A stretch of 64,000 nt of DNA from Escherichia coli (lineage in GTDB: Bacteria > Pseudomonadota > Gammaproteobacteria > Enterobacterales > Enterobacteriaceae): the NCBI RefSeq assembly GCF_016903815.1, contig NZ_CP069973.1. One strand, 5' to 3'. A program made the position numbers and the translations under genes. This document shows, piece after piece, positions 15,461 to 40,400 of this stretch. The notes below the pieces were generated by a model, which saw nothing but the letters and a program-made list of their open reading frames with translations, ran no database searches and had not been told where the DNA came from. Each line of letters begins with the position of its first letter. Within the stretch, counting starts at the first letter, position 1.

Positions 15461-17596
15461 TTACTTCAACACATACCCGTACAACCGTTTCATGCCATCT
15501 GCATCGGTTTCGCTATAGACACCTTGCAGCTCCGGCGAAAATCCCGGCAACAAATTCACCCCTTCTTCCAGCGCAAGGAAATAACGTTGAACCGCCCCAC
15601 CCCAGACTTCTCCGGGTACCACGCAAAGCACGCCTGGTGGATAAGGCAACGCCCCTTCTGCCGCAATTCGCCCTTCGGCATCACGAATCCGCACCAACTC
15701 CACTTCACCGCGAATATAAGCGCTATGCGCATCCTGGGGATTCATCACCACTGACGGGAAACTCTGCTGGCGGAACATCGCTTTTTGTAGGTCTTTGACG
15801 TCGAAACTGACATACAAATCGTGCATCTCCTGACACAACTGGCGCAGGGTGTAGTCGCGATAGCGCACCGGATATTTGTTATAAACGCTCGGCAACACCT
15901 CAGCCAGCGGCGAGTCATCCTCAATATGCTGTTCAAACTGCGCCAGCATCGCCACCAGTTGTGCCAGCTTCTCGTGGCTTTCCGCCGGAGTTAATAAGAA
16001 CAGAATGGAGTTGAGATCGCACTTCTCCGGCACAATGCCGTTCTCACGCAGGTAGTGCGCCAGAATCGTCGCCGGAACGCCAAAGTCGCTATATTCGCCG
16101 GTTTCGGCATTGATACCTGGTGTAGTGAGTAACAGCTTGCACGGATCAACAAAATACTGATCCGCGGCATATCCTTCAAAGCCGTGCCACTTCGCCCCCG
16201 GCTCAAAACTGAAAAAACGACGGTCACTGGCTAACACTGATGTCGGATAATCCTGCCACAATTTGCCATCAACAACAGGCGGGATAAACGGGCGGAACAG
16301 CTTACAGCGCGCAAGAATCGCCTTCCGGGCTTCAATCCCCAACGCAACGCACTCCGCCCACAGCCGACGCCCACTCTCCCCTTCATGAATTTTGGCGTTA
16401 ACGTCCAGCGCGGCAAACAGCGGATAGAACGGGCTGGTAGAAGCATGGAGCATAAAGGCATTATTTAACCGCTTATGCGGGCAAAAACGCGCCTGCCCGC
16501 GAATATGGTTATCTTTTTTATGGATCTGCGATGTCTGCGAGAAGCCCGCCTGCTGTTTGTGCACCGACTGGGTCACAAAGATCCCCGGATCGTTTTCGTT
16601 AAGTTCTAACAGCAGCGGCGAGCTATCCGCCATCATCGGGATAAACTGTTCGTAACCGACCCACGCGGAATCAAACAGAATGTAATCACACAGATGCCCA
16701 ACGGTATCGATCACCTGACGGGCGTTATAGACAGTGCCGTCATAGGTTCCCAGCTGAATAATCGCCAGGCGAAACGGGCGCGGCAGGTCGGCTTTTTCTG
16801 GCGCAACGTCGCGAATTTGCTGGCGCAGATACTCTTCATTAAAACAGTGCGCATCAATACCGCCAATGAAACCAAACGGGTTACGTGAAGCTTCCAGATA
16901 GACCGGCGTCGCCCCCGCCTGAATCAGCGCGCCGTGATGATTCGACTTATGGTTGTTACGGTCGAAGAGCACCAGATCGCCACGCGTTAACAGCGCATTC
17001 GTCACCACTTTATTCGCTGCCGATGTGCCGTTCAGTACAAAATAGGTTTTATCGGCATGAAAGACTTTGGCTGCGAATTTCTGCGCATCCTTCGCCGATC
17101 CTTCATGAATAAGCAGATCGCCCAATTTTACGTCAGCGTTACACATATCGGCGCGAAAGATGTTCTCGCCAAAGAAATCGTAAAAATGGCGTCCGGCAGG
17201 ATGCTTTTTAAAGAACGCACCATGTTGATGTCCAGGGCAAGCAAAGGTGCTGTTGCCCATCTCAACGTACTGCGTCAGCGTGTCATAAAACGGTGGCAGC
17301 AAATTCTCTTCATACTGACAGGCTGCGGATTCCAGCTCCAGCCACTGCTGCTCGTTGCCGTTGATTACCGCCGTAACGCCCGCAGGTAATTCAACAGCAT
17401 GTTCGGAATACAAAAACACCGGTAGATGAAAACCGGTGCGCTTAAGCAACGCAAGAATGCCACTGCGACTATCCGCAGCGGTAATGACGACTGCCGCGAC
17501 GTCCGTAAAATCAGTATCTCCCAACGCCACCACGCGGCGATGAGTAGAAAGTCGGGATACCAGTTCACTACTGGCGGCAATATTCATTGATTTCAT
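15461..17596 (-). CDS. speC: constitutive ornithine decarboxylase
   Basis: Start taken at MKSMNIAASSELVSRL (711 aa), PLP-dependent decarboxylase. Confidence 0.95.
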   Translation of the reverse strand: MKSMNIAASSELVSRLSTHRRVVALGDTDFTDVAAVVITAADSRSGILALLKRTGFHLPVFLYSEHAVELPAGVTAVINGNEQQWLELESAACQYEENLLPPFYDTLTQYVEMGNSTFACPGHQHGAFFKKHPAGRHFYDFFGENIFRADMCNADVKLGDLLIHEGSAKDAQKFAAKVFHADKTYFVLNGTSAANKVVTNALLTRGDLVLFDRNNHKSNHHGALIQAGATPVYLEASRNPFGFIGGIDAHCFNEEYLRQQIRDVAPEKADLPRPFRLAIIQLGTYDGTVYNARQVIDTVGHLCDYILFDSAWVGYEQFIPMMADSSPLLLELNENDPGIFVTQSVHKQQAGFSQTSQIHKKDNHIRGQARFCPHKRLNNAFMLHASTSPFYPLFAALDVNAKIHEGESGRRLWAECVALGIEARKAILARCKLFRPFIPPVVDGKLWQDYPTSVLASDRRFFSFEPGAKWHGFEGYAADQYFVDPCKLLLTTPGINAETGEYSDFGVPATILAHYLRENGIVPEKCDLNSILFLLTPAESHEKLAQLVAMLAQFEQHIEDDSPLAEVLPSVYNKYPVRYRDYTLRQLCQEMHDLYVSFDVKDLQKAMFRQQSFPSVVMNPQDAHSAYIRGEVELVRIRDAEGRIAAEGALPYPPGVLCVVPGEVWGGAVQRYFLALEEGVNLLPGFSPELQGVYSETDADGMKRLYGYVLK

Positions 17597-17967
17597 AAGC
17601 GCAAAACCCGTTTCGGGGAAGTAAGAATACCGGACAAGGTGAAAAACCCTGCCCCACGAGATATGGGTCAAACTGGTCACCAGCTCCGACCGCCAGACAT
17701 CAGTAAAAGCAGAAACGCTCTGATTTTACTGTTGTCCTGCAGTGAGCGTGCGTTAACCTCACCGCATGAGCAGAAAAAGGGAGGAGTTTCGCGCGAAACG
17801 GCGATAAGCGAGAGAATGTAAGGAGGTGGCGTGCATCGGGCAAACTCCGTACAGAGAGGAGAAAATTCGCGCAATCATGGCACCTTTCGCCAGAGCGTGC
17901 AAGCCAGGACTTTGCGAACAAACAAGCCATCGAAGGAGCCAAACGGTCATAATAAGAAAATCAGACA

Positions 17968-18696
17968 ATGCAGCTAACAGGAACTCTTGTGGTCATCGGT
18001 CCTTTTATCAACGCAAGTGCAGTATTACTGGGTGGCGTTCTCGGTGCACTCCTTAGTCAACGCTTACCGGAACGTATCCGCGTCTCCATGACATCAATTT
18101 TTGGTCTGGCATCGCTGGGGATTGGTATTTTACTGGTGGTGAAATGCGCCAACCTTCCGGCGATGGTTTTAACAACCTTACTCGGGGCATTAATCGGCGA
18201 AATTTGTCTGCTGGAAAAAGGCGTCAATACCGCGGTCACCAAAGCACAAAATCTGTTTCGCCACTCACGTAAGAAGCCAGCGCATGAATCTTTTATTCAG
18301 AATTATGTCGCGATTATTGTCCTGTTTTGCGCCAGCGGCACCGGGATCTTCGGGGCGATGAACGAAGGGATGACCGGCGATCCGAGTATTTTAATCGCCA
18401 AGTCATTTCTCGATTTCTTTACGGCGATGATCTTCGCCTGCTCGTTGGGTATTGCGGTGTCGGTGATTAGCATTCCATTACTGATCATCCAGTTAACGCT
18501 GGCGTGGGCTGCCGCGCTGATATTACCGCTGACCACACCGTCGATGATGGCAGACTTCAGCGCTGTAGGCGGTTTATTGCTGCTGGCAACCGGATTACGC
18601 ATCTGTGGCATTAAAATGTTCCCGGTGGTCAACATGCTTCCAGCACTCCTTCTGGCAATGCCGCTTTCCGCCGCCTGGACCGCCTGGTTTGCCTGA
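17968..18696 (+). CDS. yqgA: DUF554 inner membrane protein YqgA
   Basis: 242-aa hydrophobic ORF directly upstream of the tRNA-Phe gene. Confidence 0.85.
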   Translation: MQLTGTLVVIGPFINASAVLLGGVLGALLSQRLPERIRVSMTSIFGLASLGIGILLVVKCANLPAMVLTTLLGALIGEICLLEKGVNTAVTKAQNLFRHSRKKPAHESFIQNYVAIIVLFCASGTGIFGAMNEGMTGDPSILIAKSFLDFFTAMIFACSLGIAVSVISIPLLIIQLTLAWAAALILPLTTPSMMADFSAVGGLLLLATGLRICGIKMFPVVNMLPALLLAMPLSAAWTAWFA

Positions 18697-18801
18697 CAAT
18701 GCGTGCAATAGCGGCAAAGTGATGATAGATTGTGCAGTCTGCCCTAAATTGAAGAAATTTGATTGACGAGACGAGGCGAATCAGGTTTAATGCGCCCCGT
18801 T

Positions 18802-18877
18802 GCCCGGATAGCTCAGTCGGTAGAGCAGGGGATTGAAAATCCCCGTGTCCTTGGTTCGATTCCGAGTCCGGGCACCA
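18802..18877 (+). tRNA. pheV: tRNA-Phe (GAA anticodon)
   Basis: 76-nt cloverleaf gcccggatagctcagtcggtagagcaggggattgaaaatccccgtgtccttggttcgattccgagtccgggcacca; position after yqgA. Confidence 0.95.
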
Positions 18878-18888
18878 AATTCATATAA

Positions 18889-18915
18889 ACGGACCTCCAC
18901 GGAGGTCCGTTTTTC
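18889..18915 (+). terminator. tRNA terminator
   Basis: acggacctccacggaggtccgtttttcg hairpin plus T-run. Confidence 0.6.
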
Positions 18916-19074
18916 GTTTCAGAACACCATGATTTAAGTGTTCTTCCTCCAAATCAATTCTACCGAACTCAACCAAATTCTCCCCACATCAACCTCATTG
19001 TGTGGGTATAATTGCGGGTATACCCCAGTTCGACAGAATTTGTACCCTCTTTAACGCATTCAGAAGGCTGAACT

Positions 19075-20337
19075 ATGGCACTGACTGACGCAAAAATCCG
19101 GGCTGCAAAGCCCACTGACAAGGCTTATAAACTTACTGACGGGGCCGGCATGTTCCTGCTGGTTCATCCTAATGGTTCCCGTTACTGGCGTCTCCGTTAT
19201 CGTATTCTGGGTAAGGAGAAGACTCTGGCACTTGGTGTGTATCCAGAAGTTTCTCTCTCCGAAGCTCGTACAAAACGGGATGAGGCCCGAAAACTGATTT
19301 CGGAGGGGGTTGACCCTTGCGAACAGAAAAGAGCTAAAAAAGTTGTCCCTGATTTACAGCTCTCTTTTGAACATATTGCACGACGCTGGCATGCCAGTAA
19401 TAAACAATGGGCACAATCACACAGCGATAAAGTACTCAAAAGCCTCGAGACACACGTTTTCCCCTTTATCGGCAACCGGGATATCACAACACTCAATACC
19501 CCGGACCTGCTTATCCCTGTTCGTGCTGCAGAAGCTAAACAAATTTATGAAATCGCCAGTCGTCTGCAGCAAAGAATATCTGCTGTAATGCGTTATGCCG
19601 TACAGTCTGGCATCATCAGATATAACCCGGCTCTGGATATGGCTGGTGCATTGACCACGGTAAAACGCCAGCATCGCCCTGCTCTGGATCTTTCACGCCT
19701 GCCTGAACTTCTGTCGCGTATTGACGGTTATAAAGGCCAGCCTGTCACCCGACTGGCAGTTATGCTGAATTTACTGGTTTTTATTCGTTCCAGTGAACTC
19801 AGATATGCCCGCTGGTCTGAAATTGATATTGACAATGCCATGTGGACTATTCCAGCCGAACGCGAACCTCTGCCGGGCGTAAAATACTCACACCGGGGCT
19901 CCAAGATGCGAACACCACATCTTGTGCCACTCAGCCAACAGGCTGTAGCCATACTGACAGAACTTCAGACATGGGCAGGTGAAAATGGTCTGATATTTAC
20001 GGGTGCACATGACCCGCGTAAACCAATCAGTGAAAATACTGTAAATAAAGCCCTCAGGGTGATGGGGTATGACACAACCCGGGAAGTCTGTGGCCATGGA
20101 TTCCGGGCGATGGCGTGCAGTGCATTGATTGAATCAGGTTTGTGGTCCCGCGATGCTGTGGAACGTCAGATGAGCCATCAGGAGCGTAATGGTGTACGTG
20201 CTGCGTATATCCATAAAGCAGAACATCTGGAAGAACGTCGACTGATGCTACAGTGGTGGGCAGATTTTCTGGATGCGAACAGAGAACAATGTATCAGCCC
20301 GTTTGAATATGCAAAGATTAACAATCCATTAAAATAG
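19075..20337 (+). CDS. P4-type tyrosine integrase
   Basis: 420-aa ORF, N-terminus MALTDAKIRAAKPTDKAYKLTDGAGMFLLVHPNGSRYWRLRYR typical of P4/CP4 integrases, adjacent to tRNA. Confidence 0.9.
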   Translation: MALTDAKIRAAKPTDKAYKLTDGAGMFLLVHPNGSRYWRLRYRILGKEKTLALGVYPEVSLSEARTKRDEARKLISEGVDPCEQKRAKKVVPDLQLSFEHIARRWHASNKQWAQSHSDKVLKSLETHVFPFIGNRDITTLNTPDLLIPVRAAEAKQIYEIASRLQQRISAVMRYAVQSGIIRYNPALDMAGALTTVKRQHRPALDLSRLPELLSRIDGYKGQPVTRLAVMLNLLVFIRSSELRYARWSEIDIDNAMWTIPAEREPLPGVKYSHRGSKMRTPHLVPLSQQAVAILTELQTWAGENGLIFTGAHDPRKPISENTVNKALRVMGYDTTREVCGHGFRAMACSALIESGLWSRDAVERQMSHQERNGVRAAYIHKAEHLEERRLMLQWWADFLDANREQCISPFEYAKINNPLK

Positions 20338-20433
20338 TAATCATCCCGGGCTGCCAGCCCGGGAATTGTTTTATGAATATTTTTCTTTGTGAGTAACCGG
20401 AAAAAAGATAGCGAAATAAATTACTTTAATGAA

Positions 20434-22496: not shown

Positions 22497-22763
22497 TTAC
22501 AGTTTATTCAGAATAAGGCAGGCGGCCCGGTTTAATGCAATAAACTCCTGCCAGCTGTACTGAGACTGATAATTCAGTAAATACTGGTCTTCAACCCGGC
22601 AAATCTGTGGGCGTTTATCATAAATTGCACACAAATGAGAATCAGTCTGATAGTGACGGCAAATACCGTCACCACGATCCAGACATTGCGTTTCACCCGC
22701 CCTGTTGACATGACGACAACAGGCCCCACACTGGTTACAGGGAAATGGAGGGTGTAATTTCAT
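22497..22763 (-). CDS. YkgJ-family Cys-cluster (zinc/iron-chelating) protein
   Basis: CNQCGACC ... C-x-C motifs in 88-aa ORF; 4-nt overlap with upstream gene. Confidence 0.7.
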   Translation of the reverse strand: MKLHPPFPCNQCGACCRHVNRAGETQCLDRGDGICRHYQTDSHLCAIYDKRPQICRVEDQYLLNYQSQYSWQEFIALNRAACLILNKL

Positions 22764-24331
22764 CGCTTATTTAACCAGTCACGAACAGAAGCCACATTTC
22801 CTGACTCAAACGGCAACGCAATCCCTCGTCGGCTGACTTCTTCTCTCAGCAGAAGTCCGCGCTCTATCTCACTGTTTACGCTATCCAGATGAAGTGAAAA
22901 ATGATTTAACGCGGCAGCATCAACAGAAAATTCCAGTGCAGTAAGTTCCACAAGATAGCGATCAAGTTCAGCATTGACTGCCTGAAAGTATTCCAGTGAC
23001 CGCTGGAATTTGTCCTTAAATTTGTCCAGAAATGCCCATACCCGCTGCATAACCTCGCTATATTCGAGATAATAATTCATCACCAGCCCGAGAATACCTG
23101 TCGTCAGCGCACCACAAAAGGCAGCAAGCTCTGAACCAAATGGAAAAATAAGGATCTGCGCCATCGCCTCATTTATCATCACCCCACCGGCAACAGCCAC
23201 ACCTGCTGCTATCAGTTTAGTGACCGCTTTGGCTAACTGCCCCGGCGATAATCCCTCCGGGTTAAATACCAGGACTTTAAAGGCCTGAACGAGGTTGTTC
23301 CACATTTCCCTGATAAGCCGGACAATCATTCTTTCCGTCGTCAGGAATATATTTAACAGCGTTGTGGTAATACCTGACAGTATCCCTCCGATGACACCAT
23401 CTTTAAAGGCAATTAAAAAAGAACTGAATTTTTCCTGTACTCGTTCCTGGCAGGCACGTAATGCTGACGTTATTTCGGACAGGCATTTGCCGGCGCAGAA
23501 TGAGTTCCGTTGCTGTCTGATAATATGCGGGATTCGTTCCCTCAGTTCGAACCAGATCTCGGCAAGAATAAGCCCCAGCATCTGTCGCGTCCCCATACGA
23601 AAACCGGAATTAAGTGAAGCACTGGCGACAGCAGTAGCAAACTTACTACTCAGGTAATAGCTCTGATTAATCGTGGTCTCGTATTTTTCCCGGGCATATT
23701 TATCAGCCCTTTCCATACGCTCAGTATCTGCATCAGCTTTTTTTCTCAGACTTATCAGACGTTTCTTTTCTTTTTCTGTCAGTGTTGCCTGAGATTCAAG
23801 CTCTGCTATCTGCCTTAACGTATCTTCTCTGTTTTTCTGCAGCGTGCAAATAAACGCATCCATTGAGTCTGCTTTCTTTGATTTATTGAGCGACTCATGA
23901 GTGAATGCCAGATTTGAAGCGTCATTTGCCAGTTCTGCACCATCCCGTTCAGCAAGAATTCTCCCCGGATCATCATGAATTTCTTTAGCGGAAATAATAT
24001 GATCCAGATTTTTTTTATCGTCTGAAGCAAACACTTCGCCTGTATATGCATCAGTAAGAGTCCCTGACTGATGTGCACGCTTTCCTTTCCGGTTCGTCGC
24101 GATGTAGTTCTCATGGCTGTGGTAATGATGAGAATCATAGTCGCCACGACCTTCATACCGCTGTCGCTCAGCCTCCGTGGCATAAATGCCATTACGCACA
24201 TTATGGATAGTGTCAACATCACCACCCTTACGATCATTTAGCAACAGAAAATCCAGCCCGAATGATGCAACCAGGCTCTTCACCATGGTCTGATGTAACT
24301 CTTCTGCCCAGTCAAATTTTTCCACATTCAT
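22760..24331 (-). CDS. hypothetical 523-aa protein, soluble His/Asp-rich N-domain plus C-terminal multi-TM region
   Basis: ORF translation; N-terminal motifs GGDVDTIHNV, DHIISAKEIHDDPGR; hydrophobic helices in C-terminal half. Confidence 0.6.
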   Translation of the reverse strand: MNVEKFDWAEELHQTMVKSLVASFGLDFLLLNDRKGGDVDTIHNVRNGIYATEAERQRYEGRGDYDSHHYHSHENYIATNRKGKRAHQSGTLTDAYTGEVFASDDKKNLDHIISAKEIHDDPGRILAERDGAELANDASNLAFTHESLNKSKKADSMDAFICTLQKNREDTLRQIAELESQATLTEKEKKRLISLRKKADADTERMERADKYAREKYETTINQSYYLSSKFATAVASASLNSGFRMGTRQMLGLILAEIWFELRERIPHIIRQQRNSFCAGKCLSEITSALRACQERVQEKFSSFLIAFKDGVIGGILSGITTTLLNIFLTTERMIVRLIREMWNNLVQAFKVLVFNPEGLSPGQLAKAVTKLIAAGVAVAGGVMINEAMAQILIFPFGSELAAFCGALTTGILGLVMNYYLEYSEVMQRVWAFLDKFKDKFQRSLEYFQAVNAELDRYLVELTALEFSVDAAALNHFSLHLDSVNSEIERGLLLREEVSRRGIALPFESGNVASVRDWLNKR

Positions 24332-24377
24332 GTTATTTCACTTCTTGTAAAGCCGGGCTTTAACGCCCGGTAAATCA

Positions 24378-25457
24378 TTAACTCCGGGATGAAAAATCAT
24401 CAAATTTCACAACCGAACTGGCCAGTACATCATCCAGCTCTTCCTTATTAATAACATTCATTCCATTATCATCCTTTTCCATTTCAATAACGTTATCTTT
24501 TATCACAGCCTCACCATTTTCCTGTTTCCGCGGTTTAAACAGTGGCGTTGTAATAATATCCGTCATAATAGCGGCCAGTGAATATCCATGGTCAATAAGC
24601 ATAATGATTTCATCTGATACATTGATATCCTGTTGTTCTGTAATAACAGAATGCATGGATTTAAGCGGCTCAAAATAGTGTTTAATAAATACAGCATGCA
24701 TTCTGTTCAGCGCAGCGAGAATTTCATCAACGTATTGATTAACTTTTGCAAAATGCTCCCGGGCCAGATTCATTTTCTTAACTGCCCGTTCAACTTTGCA
24801 GGCACACTGATGGGCATTTTCAAGAGCTTTCGTCGCGTGTCTGTCGTAAGCCCAGCCCGCAATGGCAATCAACGGTGCAGCCACTGCGGTGCCTAATACC
24901 ATTGCGCCGCCGGCCATTCCCATGCCCCCTGCCGCGAGAGAGCCCCCTCCAATTGCCGCCATCGTCGCGTTATAAGCCGCGGCACCAGAAAGCGCTGCAA
25001 TGGGTGTACCTGTGGAAGCCGCAGCAAATGCCATCACTCCGCTATACACAGCAAAACCCGCAGCAGCCCCGGAAACTCCGGCAGCTACGACCGTACTGAG
25101 ATATTCTGTTGCTGAAATGGCCAGGTTATGAATCTTATTGATGTTATGTTGCGGGACACTCAGTTTCAGGTCTTTATTGCCCTCTTTTTCCAGACGCGCC
25201 AGGAGCTCAGCAGCAATCCTGTCGAACTCACTGAAATCTTTACCAATCTCAAGCTCTTTATTTCCGAGCGTTGTTAATTTTGATGATGTCTGAGCTTCAG
25301 CCTGCTCAAATTTTCCTTTATGCTCCTCGTAACGCTCTTTTGCTTTTTCGAGCACATCCTCTGCTTCTGACTTTTTTTGATATCCATCGTAAGCTTTTTT
25401 TCCGCCGAATGCCGCAGCGCCGGCAGCCACACCCAAAATAATGAAAGGTAACGCCAT
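24378..25457 (-). CDS. hypothetical membrane protein with Gly/Ala-rich glycine-zipper-like TM segment
   Basis: N-terminal TM MALPFIILGVAAGAAAF, coiled-coil-like charged region, Gly/Ala-rich stretch; AGGAGG RBS. Confidence 0.6.
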   Translation of the reverse strand: MALPFIILGVAAGAAAFGGKKAYDGYQKKSEAEDVLEKAKERYEEHKGKFEQAEAQTSSKLTTLGNKELEIGKDFSEFDRIAAELLARLEKEGNKDLKLSVPQHNINKIHNLAISATEYLSTVVAAGVSGAAAGFAVYSGVMAFAAASTGTPIAALSGAAAYNATMAAIGGGSLAAGGMGMAGGAMVLGTAVAAPLIAIAGWAYDRHATKALENAHQCACKVERAVKKMNLAREHFAKVNQYVDEILAALNRMHAVFIKHYFEPLKSMHSVITEQQDINVSDEIIMLIDHGYSLAAIMTDIITTPLFKPRKQENGEAVIKDNVIEMEKDDNGMNVINKEELDDVLASSVVKFDDFSSRS

Positions 25458-25495
25458 TCTTTTCCTCCTGTACAGGTTGCTTTATCATCAGTCAA

Positions 25496-25509
25496 CTGAA
25501 ATATTTCAG
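25496..25509. promoter_or_regulatory. 14-bp perfect palindrome CTGAAATATTTCAG between regulator and downstream gene
   Basis: Seen directly; overlaps regulator stop codon, about 40 bp upstream of next start. Confidence 0.3.
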
Positions 25510-26402
25510 GAAACATTCTCAGCGGTGAGGTATTTTCCTAACATTGTTAACACGGCTTCTTTCAACCATACTGGTTCAATAATTTCAACATTCGGTAGCC
25601 AGTATAAAATCAACGGGATAATTTGATTTTTATGTGCAGCCTTGCATGACAGCGTAATGCCATTATCATGTCTGTGTAGCAATTGCTGGTAAGGAAGTAA
25701 GTCCCGTCGCAAAAAATAATGGGCGATATTACTGTGAATGAACAACACTACATCAAATGTTTTGTCGCTCACCCACGGGTCACATGACTCACTTATCAGT
25801 GACTGTATTTCCTCACTCTTTGCAAACTTTTCTTTTTTTATATCCAGCCATTTTATTTTAGCTAATGAAAACGACTTTAACTTGTTCTCTTCAGTAGCCA
25901 GCAAATACCATATACTTCTCTGATTAGTTAATTTATAGGGATGAACGATTCTGGTCTTACCGGCATATGCAATCTGACAAATATTACTGTTGCGGATCGC
26001 TTTTTCAAGAACATCAAGATATTTTCTTAAATCATCCCTGATAGTGTGCTCAGGGTTATGAAACTGAACACGAATATGCTTTTCGGTTGCCCTGTTTTCT
26101 AATTTCTGCCAGAAACCTTCATCCCGTTCAGGAAAAATCGCATCAGTATCCAGTAACCTGGCCAGAGATTTGTGCAGTGATCCTTTGCTCTGGTTTCCTG
26201 CTCTTGCTGAAATAAGCCGGTATTTTCCATCGCCACAGGCTTCAATAAAGGGAGAAAGCATATTCAGATCACGATATGCTGTTCGCTCAGTGATGTTGTA
26301 TTTTTTCATCAAATTATGACGACTGACCACGCCATAATTCTGTAATTCAACAAGGATATCAATCAAACGCTCCGCTGAGCGATTTCTCGTTGAGTCAGCC
26401 AT
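25506..26402 (-). CDS. WYL-domain transcriptional regulator (HTH-WYL-WCX type)
   Basis: N-terminal HTH-like segment, WYL signature RSIWYLLATEENKLKSFSLAKI. Confidence 0.75.
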   Translation of the reverse strand: MADSTRNRSAERLIDILVELQNYGVVSRHNLMKKYNITERTAYRDLNMLSPFIEACGDGKYRLISARAGNQSKGSLHKSLARLLDTDAIFPERDEGFWQKLENRATEKHIRVQFHNPEHTIRDDLRKYLDVLEKAIRNSNICQIAYAGKTRIVHPYKLTNQRSIWYLLATEENKLKSFSLAKIKWLDIKKEKFAKSEEIQSLISESCDPWVSDKTFDVVLFIHSNIAHYFLRRDLLPYQQLLHRHDNGITLSCKAAHKNQIIPLILYWLPNVEIIEPVWLKEAVLTMLGKYLTAENVS

Positions 26403-26821: not shown

Positions 26822-27559
26822 TCAGAAGTTATATGTTGCACCTAACATAAACTCATTACTTCTGACATCAACAGAGGATTTATATTTAGCGCCATCCTCA
26901 TCTTTATAAGTCAGAGTGGAATCCCCTGCATCCAGATACCGGTAACTGAGGTCAAGGCTGAAATCCTGCGTCACATCGTATTTAACACCGACACCAAGGC
27001 TCCATGCCAGGTTATTTTCGTATTTTGACGCTGAAGCTGAATATACTTCACTGCCTGCCGGACTGTTATCGGTATATATGTACGAAGTTTTATGATGAAC
27101 CCGAGCATAACCCAGACCAGCAGATATCCATGGCGTGAATGCACTGCTGTTTCTGAAATCATAATACGCATTCAGCATCAGCGTGTTTACACTGAGCTTG
27201 TTCTGTGCATCATCAAACTCGGCACCACCGACACTTTCCCAATAACTCAGACGATATTTTGATTCAGCGTTACCGCGGCCATAAAACTCCACTTCAGTAC
27301 GCACCGGCACATTGTAGTGCTGATAAAAATCGTATCCCACCGCAAGGCCTGCGCCAAAAACCGTATCACTTTTGTCACCGCCTTTATATTTATCCGCCCA
27401 TGCCCCTTCACCATCAACGAAACGTTGCTCTGAAAGTGACATAACAGAAGCACCTGCTTTACCGGTCACATAAAAGCCTGTTTTGCTCTCATCAGCCAGA
27501 GTCTGGGCCGAAAACATGCCTGCCATTGCAAGCGCTGAAACCGCAATAACCTTTTTCAT
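26822..27559 (-). CDS. outer membrane beta-barrel protein (Tia/Hek/Hra-like adhesin-invasin family)
   Basis: Signal peptide MKKVIAVSALAMAGMFSAQTLA, alternating aromatic beta-strand pattern, C-terminal ...LGATYNF. Confidence 0.7.
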   Translation of the reverse strand: MKKVIAVSALAMAGMFSAQTLADESKTGFYVTGKAGASVMSLSEQRFVDGEGAWADKYKGGDKSDTVFGAGLAVGYDFYQHYNVPVRTEVEFYGRGNAESKYRLSYWESVGGAEFDDAQNKLSVNTLMLNAYYDFRNSSAFTPWISAGLGYARVHHKTSYIYTDNSPAGSEVYSASASKYENNLAWSLGVGVKYDVTQDFSLDLSYRYLDAGDSTLTYKDEDGAKYKSSVDVRSNEFMLGATYNF

Positions 27560-27877
27560 TTCAATCATCTCCGTTGGTTCTTGCCCTACCCGACAAAGAG
27601 GGTTGCCTATTTTAAAACCATGCAAAAGACAGGGTAAAATGGTTACAACCGATCGATGTGATCATATCGATCGGTAAAATCGATCGATATTGGTGAGGGT
27701 TTTCGTTTCGAATCAACAAAATGGTAATGATGGGGCCCGGACTGAAATGCTGTGTCCCAGAAGCCCGGAAGGTTTGCATTACAACTGCACCACAGTACAA
27801 AATGTCAGACACAGTAAAAAAGACTGGGTAATCAACCCACCAGAGAAAACACGTTTATTGCAAAAGAGAGGGGAATT

Positions 27878-28351
27878 ATGTGCAAACTGACTAAAGAAGA
27901 AGAATACAGCATCATCAGTCGGACAATGACGAATATTCGTTCACTACGCACGTATGTACGCGAACTTGATTTTGAGCAATTACTCGACATGCAGGAAAAG
28001 CTCAACACTGTTATTGAAGAACGCCGTGAAGATGCTGAACGAAAAGCGGCTGAACGTAAGGAACTGGAAACTAAATGTCAACAGGTATTTGAGTACATCG
28101 TTTCTGTGGGGCTTGACCCGGAAGAATGGCAGGGTCCAGTTTCTGCTATTGCAGGGACAACGGAAACCAAACGAAAACCCAAAGGCGGTGTGAGAAAAGC
28201 GAAATATATCTTTGAGGATGAGAACGGCGAAACCAGGACGTGGTCTGGTAACGGTAAAATGCCACTTGCTTTGCGGAAACAGGTTAATGGAGATTGTACC
28301 CTGGAAACTTTCCTCATTGAAAAACCCAATCAACATGAACAAAGTGAATAA
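27878..28351 (+). CDS. H-NS family nucleoid protein paralog
   Basis: Translation aligns by eye with H-NS (NIRSLRTYVRELDFEQLLDM...; AKYIFEDENGETRTWSGNGKMP). Confidence 0.8.
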   Translation: MCKLTKEEEYSIISRTMTNIRSLRTYVRELDFEQLLDMQEKLNTVIEERREDAERKAAERKELETKCQQVFEYIVSVGLDPEEWQGPVSAIAGTTETKRKPKGGVRKAKYIFEDENGETRTWSGNGKMPLALRKQVNGDCTLETFLIEKPNQHEQSE

Positions 28352-28902: not shown

Positions 28903-29910
28903 TTATCTATAGCGTTTTTGTAAACTGGCAGGAAGATAACGCTGTAATGGGGATGGCGTTTCACCTTCAATCAGTTGCGAAATAAGCTCAAAGCAGTGAA
29001 AAGCAAGTTGGCGATTATCCTGTTGTATTGTGTCGATTCTTACCGAAAGTGAATCATACAAATAATGATCATCAAAACTCGCCAGGTGGATTGTACTGTC
29101 GAGTAAATTATATTGGCTCATATAGCGCAGAACGCCTTCCAGTAATCCACAAGCGGCAGTGAATAAGGCTTTAGGAGGACGTCCTAAACGAGCGCATAGC
29201 GCGGCAAACATTTCATAGCCTGAGCTCGGATGATAATTACCGTGAATAATCCATTCAGGTTGTAGCGTTACTCCGGCTTGCTGCAAGCCTTGTGTAAATC
29301 CTTCCAGTCGATCGCGAGTCGGTGACAAACGGGGTTGTCCCCCCAGAAAATAGAATTCATCCGGGTGACTCCGTGCAATATCTGCCACCAGAGCGGCGGT
29401 GGGAGAAACAGAGTCAGTAATGACCAATGGCAATGTGCTGCCGTTCATGTGGCGATCGAACAACACAACAGGTAATTGCTCGCTAAGTTTTTGATAGTCA
29501 TTATCATGCAGCATACTGGATGCGACGATTAACCCATCAACCTGGCGGGCAATCATATTGTTCACCACCATTGTTTCCTGTGAAGGATTTTCATCAGTAC
29601 AGGATATGAGGAGTTGGACGCCCGCTTCCCGACACAATGTTTCCAGTTCATGGGAAAATACTGCAAATCCGTAGTTAGTGATTTCAGGAACGACGAGACC
29701 AATGGTATGACTGCGGTTGTCCCGTAATGAGCGGGCATGAATGCTGGGCTGATAATGCTGCTGTTGGGCAATACTCAGCACACGCTCACGCGTTTCCTGC
29801 GCAACACGTAACTCTTTGCCACGACCATTGAGAACCAGACTGGCGGTTGCTTTCGACACTCCCGCCAGTTCAGCAATGTCTTTAATAGTAACGCGTTTGG
29901 TTTTTCTCAC
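28903..29910 (-). CDS. scrR: LacI-family sucrose operon repressor
   Basis: N-terminal [26 protein letters not shown]; sugar-binding domain; position after scrB. Confidence 0.85.
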
Positions 29911-29935
29911 GACGAGGATCCGTAATTCAAAACCC

Positions 29936-31345
29936 TCATTCTACCATGCAGGCGCGTAGCGACCAGTAGCGTAACGTGACGTCAGACTCACCCTGTAATA
30001 TCAGCGAAGCTGGATGATGGGGAAAATAACGATTACTCATTACACCTTCACCATTATTGATGAATATCTCTACGCTGGAACTGTCACAGAGAATCTTCAG
30101 TGACGTTACGCTTCCTCGCCAGTAACGAGTTAGTTTCTCTTGCCCTGCAAGGCTTCTCCTCTGTAGTTGAATACCATCGTCATTAAGATGCAGTGCCAGC
30201 GCATTGCCAAAATTCAGATACAGCTCACCCGACGGAATGATGTCCATTTCCAGGCGTTCAATTTCGACATGCGGCGCATGATCCGCTTTTCCTTGCCAGA
30301 AGTGTTCAGCTTCACGCAGTTGCGCGAGTTCCCTGATTGGCATCTGAAACAATTTTCCCTTCTGGAATGAGAGTTCGCGAAAACAGGTCATTTGATGCTG
30401 CCAATGATGCTTTCTGGTTGGCTGCAACATCTCTTCGCCATCAGGAACCCCCATCCAGCCGACCAGCAATCGTCGCCCGTCCGGGGCTTCCATCGTCTGT
30501 GGTGCATAGAATTCAAATCCCGCATCCAGCTCTGAGAAAGCGCCATGCGTAAATTTGCCTGTCTCGTAATCAAACTGTCCATGTAGCCAGGCGCAGGGAT
30601 AAGTATTCAGATAGCGCTCATGTTCGCGCACCATTCCCTGGGGGCAACAGAGGAGAATGTATTCACCATCAAGGGCGAAAAGATCAGGACATTCCCACAT
30701 GTATCCTGCGTTATCTATTTCATTCAGACCGTTACCAGCAATTTCTCCATGAAAAGACCAGGTATTCAGATCGACAGAGGAATACAGCAGCACTTTCCCC
30801 CGTTTCTCTTTATCTTGCGCGCCAAGCACCATGTACCATTGGCTGTTGTGCTTCCAGACTTTTGGATCACGAACATGTCCGGTGTAACCATCAGGTAACG
30901 ATATGACAGGGCCTAGTTTATCAAACCCGCCCTGGTTATTTTCGGTGGCCAGACATTGCCATGCCGTTCTGCTGCCATCATCAAACTTAACATTACCGGT
31001 ATAGCAAAGTGTGAGAACGCCCTGATTATTAACCGCGCTTCCTGAGTAACAACCATTACGGTCGTACTCTTTATCGGGCATTAGCGCTAATGGTTCATGC
31101 TGCCAGTGCAATAAATCCGTCGAACTCCAGTGCCCCCAACATTTGTACTTATGATCACAAGCCAGTGGATTCCACTGATAAAACAGATGATAGCGGCCTC
31201 CAGACCAGCAAAAGCCATTTGGATCGTTCATTAGTCCGGTGACGGGAGCGAGATGCCAACAAGGATAGTGGGCATCTGCCAGTGCTTTGGACTGACCTTT
31301 CATCACTGCCTGTAAAATCGCGGGCATTTGTGAAGGCATCGACAT
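29936..31345 (-). CDS. scrB: sucrose-6-phosphate hydrolase (GH32)
   Basis: GH32 motifs [15 protein letters not shown] and WECPD. Confidence 0.85.
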
Positions 31346-32715
31346 TACTCCTCGTCCGTTTTGTATTTGAATAATAAAGAGAGGCTAAAAGCGACAGCGA
31401 AAGCAATCACCATTCCAATAATATAATTAACCAACGATGTTGGCTGAACGATTGCCATGCCGGGTATTGCGGTCAGACCAACGGCAGTCATATAAACGTG
31501 AACAGAGACAACCCAGGCACCGCCGGCAGCGCCACCAATTAAGGCCGCAATAAAAGGTTTAACAAAACGAAGGTTGATACCAAAAATAGCGGCTTCAGTA
31601 ATCCCTAACATTGCGGAAAAGGCCGAGGGTAGGGTGATTGCTTTAATTTTTGTATCTTTGGTTTTAAACCATACCGCCAGACATGCACCGCCTTGCGCAA
31701 CGTTTGCCATTGCCCAAATAGGCAGCAGGAAATTAACACCGATTGCAGGGTTACCTAAAAGTCCTGCTTCAATTGCGTGGAAGCTATGATGAATACCCGT
31801 AATAACAATCGCTGAATATAGCCCGCCGAATAACAACCCTGCTAACCAGCCTGCGTGTGCAATCAGCGTGCTGAGAACGAAAGAGATACCGTCACCTAAC
31901 GCTCGTCCTGCCGGACCAATAATCAAAAGAGCGATAAAGCCAGAAATGACGACAGTCAGAAATGGCGTCAGAATGAGATCCAGAGCATCAGGGATAAACC
32001 TGCGTAACTGTTTTTCCACTATGCTCATAAACCATACTGCCAGAAGCACGGGGAAAACCGTTCCCTGATAGCCAATCATGGCGATTTCAAAACCGAAGAA
32101 GTTCATTGTCTGAAATCCCGCAGCAACGCCCCAGGCATTTGTGAGTGCCGGGTGAGTCAGAATCCCTCCTAATGTCGCGCCAAGATAAGGATTTCCACCA
32201 AATTCACGAGCAGCAGTAAAGCCAATAAGGATGGGGAGAATAATAAATGCGGCTGAACTGCACATATCCAGCAGGATATAAATCGCATTATCGGTATTCA
32301 CCCAGCCATATGTTTTCACCATTCCCAGAAGCCCCATTAATAAACCAGAAGCAACAATGGCTGGAATGATGGGGACAAAAATATTAGAAAGTAGCCGTGC
32401 TATTCGCTGAAAAGGATTGAGTTTTTGAGCGGCGAGTCGAGCGATATCTGCTTTACTGGATTCGCTAATACCTGCAACCTGAATAAAGGCAGCATAGACT
32501 TTATTAACCACGCCGGTGCCAAAGATAATTTGCATTTGCCCTGAATTACGAAAACAACCTTTCACTCCATCAATCTGGCCAATGGCATGTTGATCGGCAA
32601 GTGTGTCGTCAACCAGTACCAGCCGTAGGCGAGTGGCGCAATGTGCTGCACTGGCGATGTTCTCCTTACCACCTAATAAAGGAAGCAACGATTGGGCGAT
32701 TTTATCGAAATCCAT
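31345..32715 (-). CDS. scrA: PTS sucrose-specific EIIBC component
   Basis: EIIB motif AHCATRLRL then multi-TM EIIC. Confidence 0.85.
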   Translation of the reverse strand: MDFDKIAQSLLPLLGGKENIASAAHCATRLRLVLVDDTLADQHAIGQIDGVKGCFRNSGQMQIIFGTGVVNKVYAAFIQVAGISESSKADIARLAAQKLNPFQRIARLLSNIFVPIIPAIVASGLLMGLLGMVKTYGWVNTDNAIYILLDMCSSAAFIILPILIGFTAAREFGGNPYLGATLGGILTHPALTNAWGVAAGFQTMNFFGFEIAMIGYQGTVFPVLLAVWFMSIVEKQLRRFIPDALDLILTPFLTVVISGFIALLIIGPAGRALGDGISFVLSTLIAHAGWLAGLLFGGLYSAIVITGIHHSFHAIEAGLLGNPAIGVNFLLPIWAMANVAQGGACLAVWFKTKDTKIKAITLPSAFSAMLGITEAAIFGINLRFVKPFIAALIGGAAGGAWVVSVHVYMTAVGLTAIPGMAIVQPTSLVNYIIGMVIAFAVAFSLSLLFKYKTDEE

Positions 32716-32775
32716 ATAACCCTCTAATTCATTGTTATTTCAGTAAAAACTTCACATCTGTGAGGTTGTCTGGTA

Positions 32776-34317
<1,542 letters not shown>

Positions 34318-34460
34318 TTATAAAAATTGCTAAAATGCTAAACCGGTTTAGGTGTTGATAATAAAGCTGACTTTTTAGCCAAAGCAATTATTTTCGCTAA
34401 ACCGATTTAGTAAATGTGACAGGCACGACAAATCGGGTTACAGATACAACAGCAGGATCA

Positions 34461-35381
34461 CTATTGTGAAGGGAGATCGTGTTGTCGGGGTAAGGCGGTC
34501 ATCGCGCCTTTAGCCGTGGTCGCCAGAGCACCACAAATCTGAGCTTGTACAATGATTCGTTCAAGCTGTCTGGTATTTGTTGGTATTCCAGAATCAGCCA
34601 GACCGGCAAGTAATCCAGCGACAAAAGCATCTCCTGCCCCGGTCGTATCGACGACAGAAACAGGTTTGGCGGGATAGTGGATAAACTGCCCCTGAAAATA
34701 CACAAGTACGCCATTTTTTCCTTGTGTGATAAGCAATAAAGTCAACGAATAACGTTGTACTAATGAATATGCGCCTTGCTGAACCTGGCTTTCGCCACTG
34801 ATGAATAGCAACTCTTCTTCGGACAATTTAGCGATATTCGCCAGCGAAAGTGCGCGATCAAGGTATTTCCTTAATAGCGCTTCACTCTGCCAGAGATCGC
34901 TGCGGATATTGGGATCAAAACTGATGTTTCCGCCAGCCTGACGTATTTTCTCCATAGCCAGAAATGCGGTACTTCGGGAAGGTTCTGCACTGAGCGCAAT
35001 GGAACAAAGATGGAGCCATTCACCCGGCCCAAATGCAGGAAGGCCATCAGGTTGTAAAAAAAGATCGGCACTTGGGCGTACCATAAAGGTAAAGTTTCTT
35101 TCTCCTTGCTCATCAAGTCCTACAGCCACAATTGAGGTGCGATGTTGAGGATCAAGAGACATATAACGTGTATCAACATTTTCTGTACTCAGTGTCTGAT
35201 ACATAAAGCGACCGAAAGGATCATCGCCAACTTTGCCAATAAAGGCACTTTTCCCCCCCAGCCTTGCGATACCGACTGCAACATTAGCAGGCGCCCCGCC
35301 AGGACACTGTAGTAGTCTCCCCTGGCTTTCGGGTAATAAATCAACAACCGCATCACCAAGTACCCATACTCTTGTGCTCAT
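34461..35381 (-). CDS. scrK: fructokinase (PfkB family)
   Basis: PfkB motifs GGAPANVAVG and DTTGAGDAFVAGLL. Confidence 0.85.
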   Translation of the reverse strand: MSTRVWVLGDAVVDLLPESQGRLLQCPGGAPANVAVGIARLGGKSAFIGKVGDDPFGRFMYQTLSTENVDTRYMSLDPQHRTSIVAVGLDEQGERNFTFMVRPSADLFLQPDGLPAFGPGEWLHLCSIALSAEPSRSTAFLAMEKIRQAGGNISFDPNIRSDLWQSEALLRKYLDRALSLANIAKLSEEELLFISGESQVQQGAYSLVQRYSLTLLLITQGKNGVLVYFQGQFIHYPAKPVSVVDTTGAGDAFVAGLLAGLADSGIPTNTRQLERIIVQAQICGALATTAKGAMTALPRQHDLPSQ

Positions 35382-37453: not shown

Positions 37454-40400
37454 TTAGTCTCCAGGATTTCCGGGGCGGTTCAGCTGTTCATTAAAACGTT
37501 GTCCAGGCTGATCATAAAGTGCGCGTAATGTCTCCGCGGATGGCCGCGGTTGCATTTGCTGCATGCAGGGTTTCTGGTGGTAATCAAAATACTGTGGCAG
37601 ATGCTGGATCTCTGCTTTGTTTTCAATTACCCGTTGAAGGGCTCTTTGACGCAACTCTCTTGATGATTTGTCACGGATCGATTCCAATTGTAGCTGGCTG
37701 CCGCTACTAATTCGCTTACGAGCAGCATCAAAATCAAAGCGAATAGCCAATAGACTCGGCGTAGTCTCACTTAGCTGCAATTCCCCTAATTGCACTGATT
37801 CACGCTTATCTTTAATATAAACAATGATCTTATCATCAAGTTCAAAGCTGAGGTCAGCACCGGATTCCGTAGTATATGGGTAGAGTAAGCAACCACTCGG
37901 TGATTCCTGAAAGTCAGTAGAGTCGATGTTGACTATATCTCGTAGGTCTACTTCTGTATCAGATAATGCCTGCCATAACTCAATTGGGCTTGACTCACTA
38001 CTATCGAAGTCATCTTCATCCATCTCTTGATTAGGATTAGCTCGCTCAATGATGGCATCAATTACTGGCTCGAGGTTAAACAGTAGTTCAATAAAAGTAT
38101 TACGCTGATTAAGTGAGCCACGTTGTAATGAAAGTTGAGTATTAATTTTAGCCTGGGAATATTTACCAGCCTTTATACTTTCTTCGATCGATAATCCTTT
38201 TTCATACACTATTCTATTAATAGTGCGATTATCAGGATCTAAGTCTATCAATAGCCGCTCTCCTAGGCCAGTGATGTAACAACGCAATTCATGCGCAAAG
38301 CGTGGGTTAGATGACCAGTTACATTGAAAATAATAGATCCCATCATTTTGTTCTAGAAGCTTCACTTCTTGCGGCCAATCATCTGTGCCCCAGCAAACAG
38401 GAATTACCTTATCCTGTGACTCAGACGCCACAACTTGATTAATCTCAGCTTGTTCCGGTGCTCGAATTGACTGCAGCAAAGGATCGAGCGCGATAGGTAT
38501 ACCGTCAACGGTTTGTTTTGCGCGTTCTAGCTCAGCCTGCACCAGTACTGGCATATCTTCACTAAATAGCTCCTCCACCATACGATATACTGCAAAGCAA
38601 TCTCGCCCAAAAGCATCAGTACTTTCGGGATTCTCTGGCTGGTAGCGATTATCTGCAGTTAATTCATCACTGAATTCAAGCAATCCAATCAGAGTAATTA
38701 CTGTCTGCTCCCCGACTTGTACCAGCAGTTTCTCTGGGCAAAGATCTCCATGAGGTAACTGCTTTTCATGAAAAGCATGAATGGTGTTGATCAACTTTTC
38801 CGCAATTGTAAAACGTTGGGATTGTACTAACACGTTCTCAGCAATAAACTGTGACCACGGTAGGCCATCCACATACTCGCTCACTACATACAAGCCGCCT
38901 TGTCCTAATAGTCCATAGGACTGCACCTTAGGAGTTGGCAGATTTATATGCGTAAGCTTATCGATCCGTTGCTTAAAAGCGTGGATACGGCGGTTAACAC
39001 CAGGTTGTTGAGGGGTCAAAATAACACCATCCCACAATTTTACCTGCAGAGCTTTCCCACCTTGTTCACAGTGATAACTGATGCTGCCAGTCGTAGCAAT
39101 AGCAGCAAGAGCAGAGTAAACCATAGACAACTGTTCAGGAAGTGGAGGAAACTCAATTAACACACCAACGCTGTTCATCCCTTCGCGAAAGAATTTGTTT
39201 TGCTTTAATTCTTGATAAATCTGGTTAGCTTCATCAAATTCTTGGCTATGTTCCTTAGTAGCTGCATTAAACTCATTGAGCATTATGTCCGCACGTGGAA
39301 AGCGTTTACTTGGCTCAAGGTTAAGAGCTTGCTCAAACCAGCTATTTAGAATACCGCTAAAAGGATCAGTTAATGGAGCTCTCCATTCAGGCATCTGTCC
39401 AGGAGTCAGTAATGATTCACCTGCAAAACAAATACGATAAGCAATTACAGCCAACATGAATACATCTAGGCGATAGGGCTCAACTGCTTCTTCAAAAGCA
39501 TCTTCGGGCAAAATATATGGAGCACTTTGCAATGTCGGACGCAATGACTCTAGGCTATTATGTCCCTCCAGTGAGGCTGCGCCAAAGCCAGTAACGACAA
39601 TGCTCTTCTGATCCCCTGCGTACCATAGATTGTGCGGGTCAATATCACAATGACTGATACCCAAGCTATGTAATTCCGAGAATGGAGCTAATAATGCACG
39701 AACGCGATCAATACGCTCAGATTTACTCCATCCGTCAGCTTCGCTATCTAGAATCTCATCTAATCGGCTAAAACTACGGCGTAACTCATACAGCTCACGG
39801 GCATCATCAGTTATATCCTCCTCGGATAGTTCCCTTACAGCACGCAACATATAATCCTGCATAGTTGCGCTGCCATGACGAACTAGGCGACCGACTCGAG
39901 TCTCACGCAGAGCTATCTCAGCCCACAATGTTTGCATTGCGTTTGCTACACCCAAGGCATCAAAGTTCCACTGCCGTAGCAGACCTCTGTGTTGACTATT
40001 GTCTTTGTGGGTAGCCCTGAATTCGTTGTAGACCATGTGAGGGTGACTAAAGAATGGCTTATCGTTCGCAAGATAACCGCTTTCTTTTAGTGGCAAAGGC
40101 CTGACTTTTGGTCCTTCAAAGAAGGACTTAATTATAGGTAATGCCTCATCAGAATTTGGTCGAGGCTTTCCCCCTTCAAAAAGATGAAAAAAGTTAGTGT
40201 GTTGCACCAGCTTTTCGTAATTTTTTGGGTTACCTATAGTCAAGAATTCATCACGGGTATGAACATAGCGCCTCTCACTTAATGGCAAGTTTTCAGGACC
40301 AGCTGTGCCACACAGCACTACATGAGCCTCAACATGCAAAAAGTAACCCAGCTTACGAGATAACTCTTCCTGCAACAAATCTTTTAGTCGCAGTGCATGC

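Follow-up and report, generated by a model that had tools for sequence, protein, structure and literature searches.

The window analysed here, 64,000 nucleotides of Escherichia coli DNA (contig NZ_CP069973.1 of assembly GCF_016903815.1), carries at positions 26,822 to 28,351 a divergent pair of genes within a genomic island at tRNA-Phe (pheV). One gene encodes an outer membrane protein and the other a protein of the H-NS family. In the joint reading that we favour, and that seems to us moderately probable as a whole, the former would be the adhesin Hra2 (heat-resistant agglutinin 2), the latter an accessory H-NS-like protein of the Sfx/HppX lineage, and the region between them would hold a candidate OxyR/Dam switch for hra2, within a conserved pheV module.

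The hra2 allele and its setting

The pair and the landmarks of its island are located in the window as follows.

26822..27625, minus strand: hra2 allele, open reading frame (ORF) of 803 nt
26822..27559, minus strand: coding part of the hra2 allele, 245 amino acids (aa) from the MKK start
27878..28351, plus strand: H-NS-like gene, 474 nt, 157 aa
18802-18877: tRNA-Phe (pheV), the insertion tRNA of the island
19075-20337: tyrosine integrase, adjoining pheV

Translation of hra2 probably starts at 27559 (MKK, the RefSeq choice) or at 27568 (MIEMKK, the choice in GenBank JF808724), and the gap to the H-NS-like gene measures 318 bp from the former and 309 bp from the latter. An earlier, sequence-only reading of this DNA, which had described a divergent pair roughly 320 bp apart, was therefore accurate on this point. 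Both ORFs are real genes rather than chance reading frames, as judged by their Pfam matches (OMP_b-brl at 74 bits for one; Histone_HNS_N at 70 bits and Histone_HNS at 24.1 bits for the other). The island setting assumed in that reading also holds: pheV adjoins the integrase, positions 15676-20390 match the speC-yqgA-pheV-integrase region of enteroaggregative E. coli (EAEC) strain 042 at 97% identity, and the G+C content drops from 0.52 in the core to 0.47 in the island. The intergenic region itself has 43% G+C and is thus mildly AT-rich, and an Rfam search (E<=1) found no structured RNA in or around it. The 2-kb stretch with the pair occurs, at a coverage of at least 80%, in 119 of 5426 complete E. 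coli genomes, in which the two genes are annotated as 'outer membrane protein' and 'H-NS family histone-like protein'.

The minus-strand gene is identified by its sequence as an allele of the known adhesin gene hra2. Across the whole gene, it shares about 96% of its nucleotides with hra2 of EAEC 60A (JF808724.1), a value that is approximate because the comparison sequence was a machine-read copy, with indels, printed in the supplement of PMC5539235; nucleotide identity to tia is about 80% and to hek about 78%. At the protein level, database search and alignment gave full-length identities of 67% to the Tia-named protein P0104 and of 66% to Hra1 of strain 042; the database search further returned, at 51% identity, a Salmonella protein named 'heat resistant agglutinin 1'. 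With identities of 66–98% to Hra-family proteins, the assignment to a Tia/Hek/Hra-like group made in the earlier reading is secure. A better match to OmpA-like porins, the alternative named there, was not found, as the OmpA, OmpX and Ail barrels reach at most about 20% identity.

The AlphaFold model of Hra2 (predicted local distance difference test score, pLDDT, of 86) consists of a signal-peptide helix, formed by the N-terminal residues MKKVIAVSALAMAGMFSAQTLA, and eight long strands covering residues 29-244, and the chain has an aromatic end, YNF. Its closest folds in the PDB are the OmpA transmembrane domain, NspA, Ail and OmpX, all at 20% identity or less. A housekeeping barrel of the OmpA/OmpX/OmpW type, which would have only the fold in common with this protein, was rejected on that account. 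Alignment of the family shows its members to be mosaics of loop cassettes. Hra2 of EAEC 60A (GenBank JF808724 / AEK70958) was described by Mancini et al. in 2011 (J Bacteriol 193:4813; cited in PMC5539235 and PMC5863034), and the phenotypes reported are adherence only for Hra2, invasion for Tia, and autoaggregation for Hra1/Hek (PMC5539235). We hold with high confidence that the protein of the window is an adhesin barrel. By analogy with published work on Hra2, Hra1, Hek and Tia, it would be directed by its signal peptide to the outer membrane, where it would fold into an eight-stranded beta-barrel whose long surface loops mediate adherence.

A related locus deserves mention in its own right. 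In strain CFSAN061769 (L001), the same island contains, at a distance of 10 kb (positions 10247-10960), a second, Tia-like paralog of the Hra family that is 70% identical. A separate copy of the GATC-rich candidate operator described below accompanies this paralog, at 11099, and it has no H-NS-like neighbour.

An H-NS-like protein of the Sfx/HppX lineage

The 157-residue product of the plus-strand gene is best described, on its domain content and its nearest relatives, as a full-length H-NS-family member of the Sfx/HppX lineage of IncX plasmids. It matches PF22470 (Histone_HNS_N) at 69.9 bits, well above the cutoff of 24.5, and the NCBIfam models for H-NS and StpA at sub-threshold scores of 92 and 90 bits. 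Its N-terminal domain matches PDB 3nr7 at 4e-11, and its C-terminal domain matches the C-terminal domains of H-NS and StpA in the PDB at 1e-8 to 7e-6. The AlphaFold model (pLDDT 75) has the architecture of H-NS: residues 6-85 form three helices, of which one is long (32-77), residues 90-104 form a disordered basic linker, and the C-terminal domain has a hairpin-loop-helix topology (beta-hairpin at 110-122, helix at 130-137). The protein is identical to a copy annotated by RefSeq in strain CFSAN061769 (WP_000335224.1). The presence of an H-NS-family protein in the island, as had been claimed from the letters alone, is thus borne out, and the protein is full-length.

The identity of this protein to its best-known relatives is low: 41% to H-NS, 37% to StpA and 37% to Hfp (aligned with hns and stpA of MG1655 and with hfp, ECP_1927, of uropathogenic E. 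coli (UPEC) 536). The next-best DNA matches of its gene in E. coli genomes are found on plasmids of 33-50 kb and not on chromosomes, and the plasmid homologs reside in a topB-hha-hns backbone, with amino acid identities of 69% for those typed as IncX4, 55% for IncX1 and 44% for IncX3. Furthermore, its Q39 occupies the position of L30 in H-NS, and such a non-Leu residue is the HppX signature, defined by Fitzgerald et al. as a substitution of H-NS L30 (PMC7544231). The same clade was named HppX by these authors and Sfx by Wang, Cordova and Navarre (PMC11796372), and the latter work mentions in passing that chromosomal homologs of Sfx exist. The protein described here is accordingly a new, uncharacterised chromosomal member of a known clade. 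A paralog of the Hfp/StpA type was rejected, since that type is about 50-60% identical to H-NS and has the canonical QGR, whereas the identities here are 37-41%. The HlpC clade of Fitzgerald et al. was set aside because it is stated to keep QGR, and a truncated antagonist of the H-NST type does not fit, as the window allele is full-length and includes the C-terminal domain.

The plasmid homology begins 1-4 nt before the ATG and stops within or at the end of the ORF, and neither hha nor topB was found in the window (tblastn with Hha; blastn against IncX loci). The capture of a larger IncX segment that included hha was rejected on the same searches, the homology being confined to the ORF. It appears that the H-NS-like ORF was captured alone from the Sfx/HppX lineage of IncX plasmids, without the plasmid topB and hha. 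P0054 (UniRef Q46969_ECOLX, 'Microcin DNA binding protein'), an E. coli protein of 171 aa from a microcin cluster, is a further relative, an RGR-type Sfx-like protein with a frameshifted C-terminal domain, which suggests another chromosomal or island copy of the Sfx lineage beside microcin genes.

What such a protein might do can be approached through its two domains. Dimerisation or oligomerisation would be expected through the N-terminal helices, and the alignment shows the counterparts of H-NS residues R12, R15, L26 and K57 to be invariant, which makes heteromer formation with H-NS or StpA, as well as Hha binding, plausible. Sfx itself binds H-NS, StpA and Hha, its specificity is set by its DNA-binding domain, and it has a specific target that H-NS cannot repress and that depends on this domain (PMC11796372). 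The DNA-contact loop of the window protein reads TWSGNGKMP, with NGK at residues 125-127, against TWTGQGRTP in H-NS, StpA and Hfp and WSGRGR in most Sfx homologs. Within the pattern T-W-T-G-Q-G-R-x-P, the loop W, both G and the P are invariant in the alignment, and the Q/RGR 'AT-hook-like' minor-groove motif is replaced by NGK. The DNA-binding motif that the sequence-only reading had expected of a genuine H-NS paralog is therefore present, but in a non-canonical form.

The NGK loop is shared by the island, IncX4 and Salmonella-plasmid homologs (60-69% identical) and is conserved across homologs that are 60-90% identical. When 1.8 billion representative proteins were searched without a profile, x-G-K loops (VGK, TGK, HGK, QGK and NGK) turned up in distant H-NS C-terminal domains as well. 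At 41-45% identity, the C-terminal domain of the NGK group stands no closer to the RGR-type Sfx domains than to the QGR-type H-NS domains. Wang et al. found RGR in 25 of 31 IncX H-NS homologs (PMC11796372), so exceptions exist; the text of that paper makes no mention of NGK. It did establish that the first hook residue alone shifts the target choice of Sfx and H-NS, and for this reason the specificity of the window protein may differ. The score for the C-terminal Pfam domain PF00816 (Histone_HNS), 24.1 bits, lies just under its gathering cutoff of 25.6, and the counterparts of the minor-groove residues Q112 and R114 are both substituted; these two points speak against ordinary DNA binding, which could accordingly be weak or altered. 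Binding of AT-rich DNA by the C-terminal domain, through a minor-groove loop with NGK in place of QGR or RGR, nevertheless seems plausible and even probable.

The gene has a mosaic history. Across the islands, Hra2 is combined with NGK or RGR alleles of the H-NS-like protein, Tia-like proteins with NGK or RGR alleles, and Hra2 or Hra1-like proteins with frameshifted copies. Over its first 60 codons, an RGR allele from the islands hardly differs from the window gene (synonymous divergence, dS, of 0.055), and beyond them the divergence is saturated; this homology break, at 28056, is on comparison of the alleles a recombination junction inside the H-NS-like gene. The exchange of NGK and RGR halves at about codon 60 keeps the reading frame in the mosaic alleles.

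Decay is equally evident. Pseudogene alleles are present in L003, L004 and L024-L027; those of L024-L027 have three deletions, two of 1 bp and one of 16 bp, whereas L003 and L004 have lost the start region and acquired stop codons. A 1-bp deletion after codon 47 (GAAGAACGCC to GAAGACGCC) is recurrent and yields products of 104-108 aa that contain the first dimerisation helices only. The protein database holds such frameshifted products, P0077, P0084 and P0087, with about 47 native N-terminal residues. These are superficially similar to H-NST but bear further lesions and are probably products of pseudogenes.

These observations raise the possibility that the H-NS-like gene is a decaying passenger from an IncX plasmid that is no longer useful, its adjacency to hra2 being synteny without function. 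In favour of this are the multiple independent lesions just described, the frequency of frameshifted products in the database, strain 042, which keeps hra1 and the GATC-rich element without an H-NS-like neighbour, and the ratio of nonsynonymous to synonymous divergence (dN/dS) of 0.77 between two intact island NGK alleles, whose differences are clustered in codons 60-100. The decay, the 042 locus and this ratio all tell against a functional, maintained protein. On the other side, the ORF of the window is undamaged and recurs at an identity of 99% or more in 116 complete-genome records of E. coli, its long-range dN/dS, measured against the IncX4 homolog, is 0.19, the two island NGK alleles are 98% identical in the C-terminal domain and 86% in the N-terminal region, with the changes around codons 60-100, and the swapped halves stay in frame. 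We therefore consider the passenger explanation somewhat unlikely, while giving it more weight than any other alternative discussed here. As far as these comparisons can tell, the gene is maintained in some lineages and dispensable in others, and the hra genes are independent of it; a required role in hra expression is unlikely because the island alleles are mosaic and several are pseudogenes. With moderate confidence, we regard the H-NS-like protein as an accessory, dispensable homolog of Sfx-type silencers that would form heteromers with H-NS and StpA, bind Hha and recognise AT-rich DNA with altered specificity. Its likeliest role would be to modulate H-NS-type silencing of acquired DNA rather than to serve as a dedicated regulator of hra2.

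A candidate OxyR/Dam operator upstream of hra2

Expression of hra2 is more likely to be set by a conserved, GATC-rich element in the intergenic region, which could act as a methylation-sensitive OxyR/Dam switch by analogy with agn43, gtr and opvAB. We regard this element as a new candidate member of a known switch class. The relevant sites, and the regulator gene on the other side of hra2, are listed below.

27639..27691, no strand assigned: GATC-rich palindromic element with repeats and a GATC cluster, candidate agn43-type OxyR/Dam operator
27609..27638, minus strand: hra2 promoter-like site, -35 TTTACC, 18-nt spacer, -10 TAAAAT (9/12 in a consensus scan)
27611..27640, plus strand: overlapping promoter-like site toward the H-NS-like gene, TTTAAA/TTAAAA, 17-18 nt, TAAAAT (9/12 in a consensus scan)
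25506..26402, minus strand: gene of a helix-turn-helix (HTH)-WYL-WCX regulator (Pfam WYL, WCX and HTH_DeoR; PADLOC WYL)

Four GATC sites, at 27651, 27660, 27669 and 27682, fall within 35 bp, a cluster that is unique in the window. The element consists of a 28-bp palindrome, ACCGATCGATGTGA/TCATATCGATCGGT, followed by ATCGATCGAT, and it contains four of the five copies of the octamer ATCGATCG in the 64 kb. Its core, TATCGATCG-N5-ATCGATCGATA, is identical to the agn43 operator of MG1655 at 22 of 25 positions (TATCGATCGgtaAaATCGATCGATA against TATCGATCGtttAtATCGATCGATA), and the ATCGATCG repeats have the same spacing of 13 bp as in the agn43 operator. A longer alignment places the third GATC of agn43 in register, with a local score of 49.5 as compared with 19.1 +/- 3.2 for shuffled sequences. 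Two overlapping sites match the OxyR consensus ATAGnTnnnAnCTAT-N7-ATAGnTnnnAnCTAT at 13 of 20 positions, against 14 of 20 for agn43, and are among the 13 best positions of the window. The element and the promoter-like block are conserved upstream of every Hra-family gene fetched, including hra1 of strain 042 and the second paralog of CFSAN061769, and the hra2 promoter-like block is conserved upstream of all five Hra-family genes that were aligned. The bases flanking the GATC tetramers vary among family members, whereas the tetramers persist. On the plus strand, the end of the candidate -10 lies 10 nt ahead of the first GATC, a layout similar to that of agn43, where the operator follows the promoter; with respect to hra2, the candidate operator lies 50-85 bp, and its GATC sites about 50-83 bp, upstream of the predicted start site.

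Several features count against a switch of this kind. The match to the OxyR consensus, at 13 of 20 positions, is modest, both promoter predictions are weak consensus matches (9 of 12), and the candidate operator is located upstream of the predicted hra2 promoter, whereas that of agn43 is located downstream of the start site. Because of this position, the regulatory logic of agn43 is not simply transferable. The searchable literature, in which the original Hra2 paper is not covered, contains no report of OxyR/Dam control or ON/OFF switching of hra, hek or tia; one apparent match concerned HEK-293 cells. On the available sequence evidence, we would give roughly even odds to the proposal that hra2 is phase-variable through OxyR and Dam acting at the conserved candidate operator.

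The pattern is also found outside the Hra family. An exact-pattern scan of one genome per species returned 58 matches, 13 of which are in Enterobacterales; only these 13 were inspected, and many of the matches, in cyanobacteria and other phyla, are probably due to chance or to GATCGATC-type repeats. The exact sequence ATCGATCG-N5-ATCGATCGAT stands upstream of family-2 glycosyltransferase genes, a fimbrial operon and a pertactin-type autotransporter gene, in several cases with extra GATC nearby; the loci are those of an Enterobacter metagenome-assembled genome, Yokenella and Trabulsiella (L051, L080 and L084), Citrobacter braakii (L070) and Pragia fontium (L055). These loci are candidates for unreported OxyR/Dam phase-variable loci. 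A gene for a TonB-dependent receptor adjoins another of the Enterobacterales matches.

The palindromes could instead be the operator of a regulator other than OxyR, such as the adjacent WYL/HTH protein, and the GATC would then be incidental to a CGATCGAT recognition sequence. The repeat unit is indeed a perfect 8-bp palindrome, as is typical of the operators of dimeric HTH proteins, the fit to the OxyR consensus is limited, and the gene of the WYL regulator, which lies downstream of hra2 and is the counterpart of the 'deoR' in the title of JF808724, is syntenic in many of the island loci fetched. However, the element is also present upstream of the hra1 gene of strain 042 and in L003, both of which lack the WYL gene. 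Moreover, it is the GATC tetramers that are retained where their flanks vary, the core is almost identical to the experimentally established OxyR/Dam operator of agn43, and the pattern recurs before surface-structure genes in other Enterobacterales. An operator for another regulator is on these grounds doubtful, and we continue to prefer the OxyR/Dam interpretation.

Even less probable, in our judgement, is a dedicated role of the H-NS-like protein in silencing or anti-silencing the divergent hra2, in the way in which Ler acts on the LEE (locus of enterocyte effacement) or Sfx on the transfer genes of R6K. The divergent arrangement persists from island to island in spite of the reassortment of alleles at both genes, and the ability of Sfx to act, via its DNA-binding domain, on a target beyond the reach of H-NS offers a precedent (PMC11796372). 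Yet loci in which the H-NS-like gene is missing or inactivated still have an intact hra gene with the same promoter and element, the conserved upstream block is part of the hra side, and an intergenic region of 43% G+C is only mildly AT-rich. Least probable of all is a bidirectional OxyR/Dam switch in the 318-bp region, which would turn both hra2 and, via the overlapping plus-strand promoter, the H-NS-like gene ON and OFF. Should such a switch exist, a subpopulation of cells would make the NGK-loop silencer variant, and the phase of the adhesin would be coupled to heterogeneous silencing of the island or chromosome.

The surrounding island and comparison with known systems

In related contigs, the pair belongs to a module of conserved order: phosphoethanolamine transferase, a 65-aa ORF, a 523-aa ORF, a 359-aa ORF, the WYL regulator, an Hra-family gene and the divergent H-NS-like gene. 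The integrase precedes the module, and the pair of hra2 and the H-NS-like gene forms its right-hand end. The trio of the 523-aa protein, the 359-aa protein and the WYL regulator is syntenic across all related islands, with both ORFs downstream of the regulator, and the two proteins match the PADLOC candidate defence families PDC-M40B (1.8e-42) and PDC-M09A (1.7e-22), respectively. The trio is thus probably a WYL-controlled candidate anti-phage module. The RefSeq names of the 523-aa and 359-aa proteins (encoded within 22760-26402, minus strand), 'ATP--cob(I)alamin adenosyltransferase' and 'chemotaxis protein', are mis-annotations. The H-NS-like protein was rejected as part of a defence system, as it has no PADLOC match, unlike these two neighbours.

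The DNA to the right of the H-NS-like gene (28352 onward) is a cargo hotspot, and homology between islands stops between 28056 and 28838. In other islands (L007-L010 and L020-L027) the cargo includes CRISPR-Cas I-E, HamA/DEAD (Hachiman-like), an OLD-family nuclease, a type ISP restriction-modification system, PerC and insertion sequence (IS) IS66. The window has the following genes there.

28903-35381: scrKYABR sucrose operon, the cargo to the right of the H-NS-like gene
37454-40678, minus strand: 1074-aa NERD and protein-kinase-like protein
44271-45929, minus strand: isolated TssF gene of a type VI secretion system (T6SS), with IS fragments on either side
50129-50884, plus strand: TIR-domain protein
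57621-58439, plus strand: DUF932 protein

Remnants of IS3 and IS66 are scattered among the last four of these genes, and the island is thus highly mosaic.

The Hra family (Hra1, Hek, Hes, Tia and Hra2) comprises accessory colonisation and invasion factors of EAEC and of enterotoxigenic (ETEC), Shiga toxin-producing (STEC), neonatal meningitis (NMEC) and avian pathogenic (APEC) E. coli. The regulation of its genes is largely undescribed, and the conserved agn43-like candidate operator predicts that their expression is phase-variable. If this is true, phase variation would affect the reading of adhesion phenotypes, comparisons of mutants and the choice of candidate vaccine antigens. The Sfx/HppX lineage, which has been described as dedicated to plasmids, has a recurrent chromosomal foothold in the pheV islands of E. 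coli, and the NGK loop, together with the recombining DNA-binding halves, may offer a natural system for studying how hook residues set the target choice of xenogeneic silencers. Neither the adhesin switch nor the Sfx-lineage point overturns current understanding.

Among known systems, the adhesin is closest to Hra2 of EAEC 60A, with which it has in common the DNA identity of about 96%, the MIEMKK start and the downstream 'deoR' (WYL) gene, and from which it differs by a small number of allelic substitutions, including some in the signal peptide. The record of the 60A gene is a fragment of 1-2 kb and, as far as we can tell, describes neither the island context nor the H-NS-like neighbour. Tia of ETEC H10407 and Hra1/Hek/Hes share with the window Hra2 the signal peptide, the eight-stranded barrel, the C-terminal YNF and the upstream block of promoter and operator; their surface loops are different.

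For the H-NS-like protein, Sfx of the IncX2 plasmid R6K and HppX are nearest in sequence, and they likewise have an N-terminal extension of about nine residues, Q at the position of L30 and a DNA-binding region divergent from that of H-NS. Unlike them, the window gene is chromosomal, on a pheV island, and stands outside a topB-hha-sfx operon, with no conjugation genes nearby to repress. Its product has NGK in the loop instead of the RGR reported for most Sfx homologs, has two prolines in the linker as compared with three to five in RGR-type homologs, and keeps the counterpart of H-NS R93. Hfp (H-NSB) of UPEC 536 offers a parallel of another kind, as it is also a full-length H-NS paralog on a tRNA-associated island (serU) of a pathogenic E. 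coli (PMC2814080). Yet Hfp, with its canonical QGR and 58% identity to H-NS, is only 37% identical to the window protein and belongs to another clade and another family of islands.

As for the candidate switch, the element resembles that of agn43 (flu) in having a GATC cluster inside an OxyR-like site, with the 22 shared core positions and the 13-bp repeat spacing, and it differs in having four GATC sites where agn43 has three. In its position upstream of the predicted promoter it departs from agn43 and is similar, instead, to the elements of gtr and opvAB in Salmonella (PMC3764049, PMC2909390 and PMC4856963, for all three systems).

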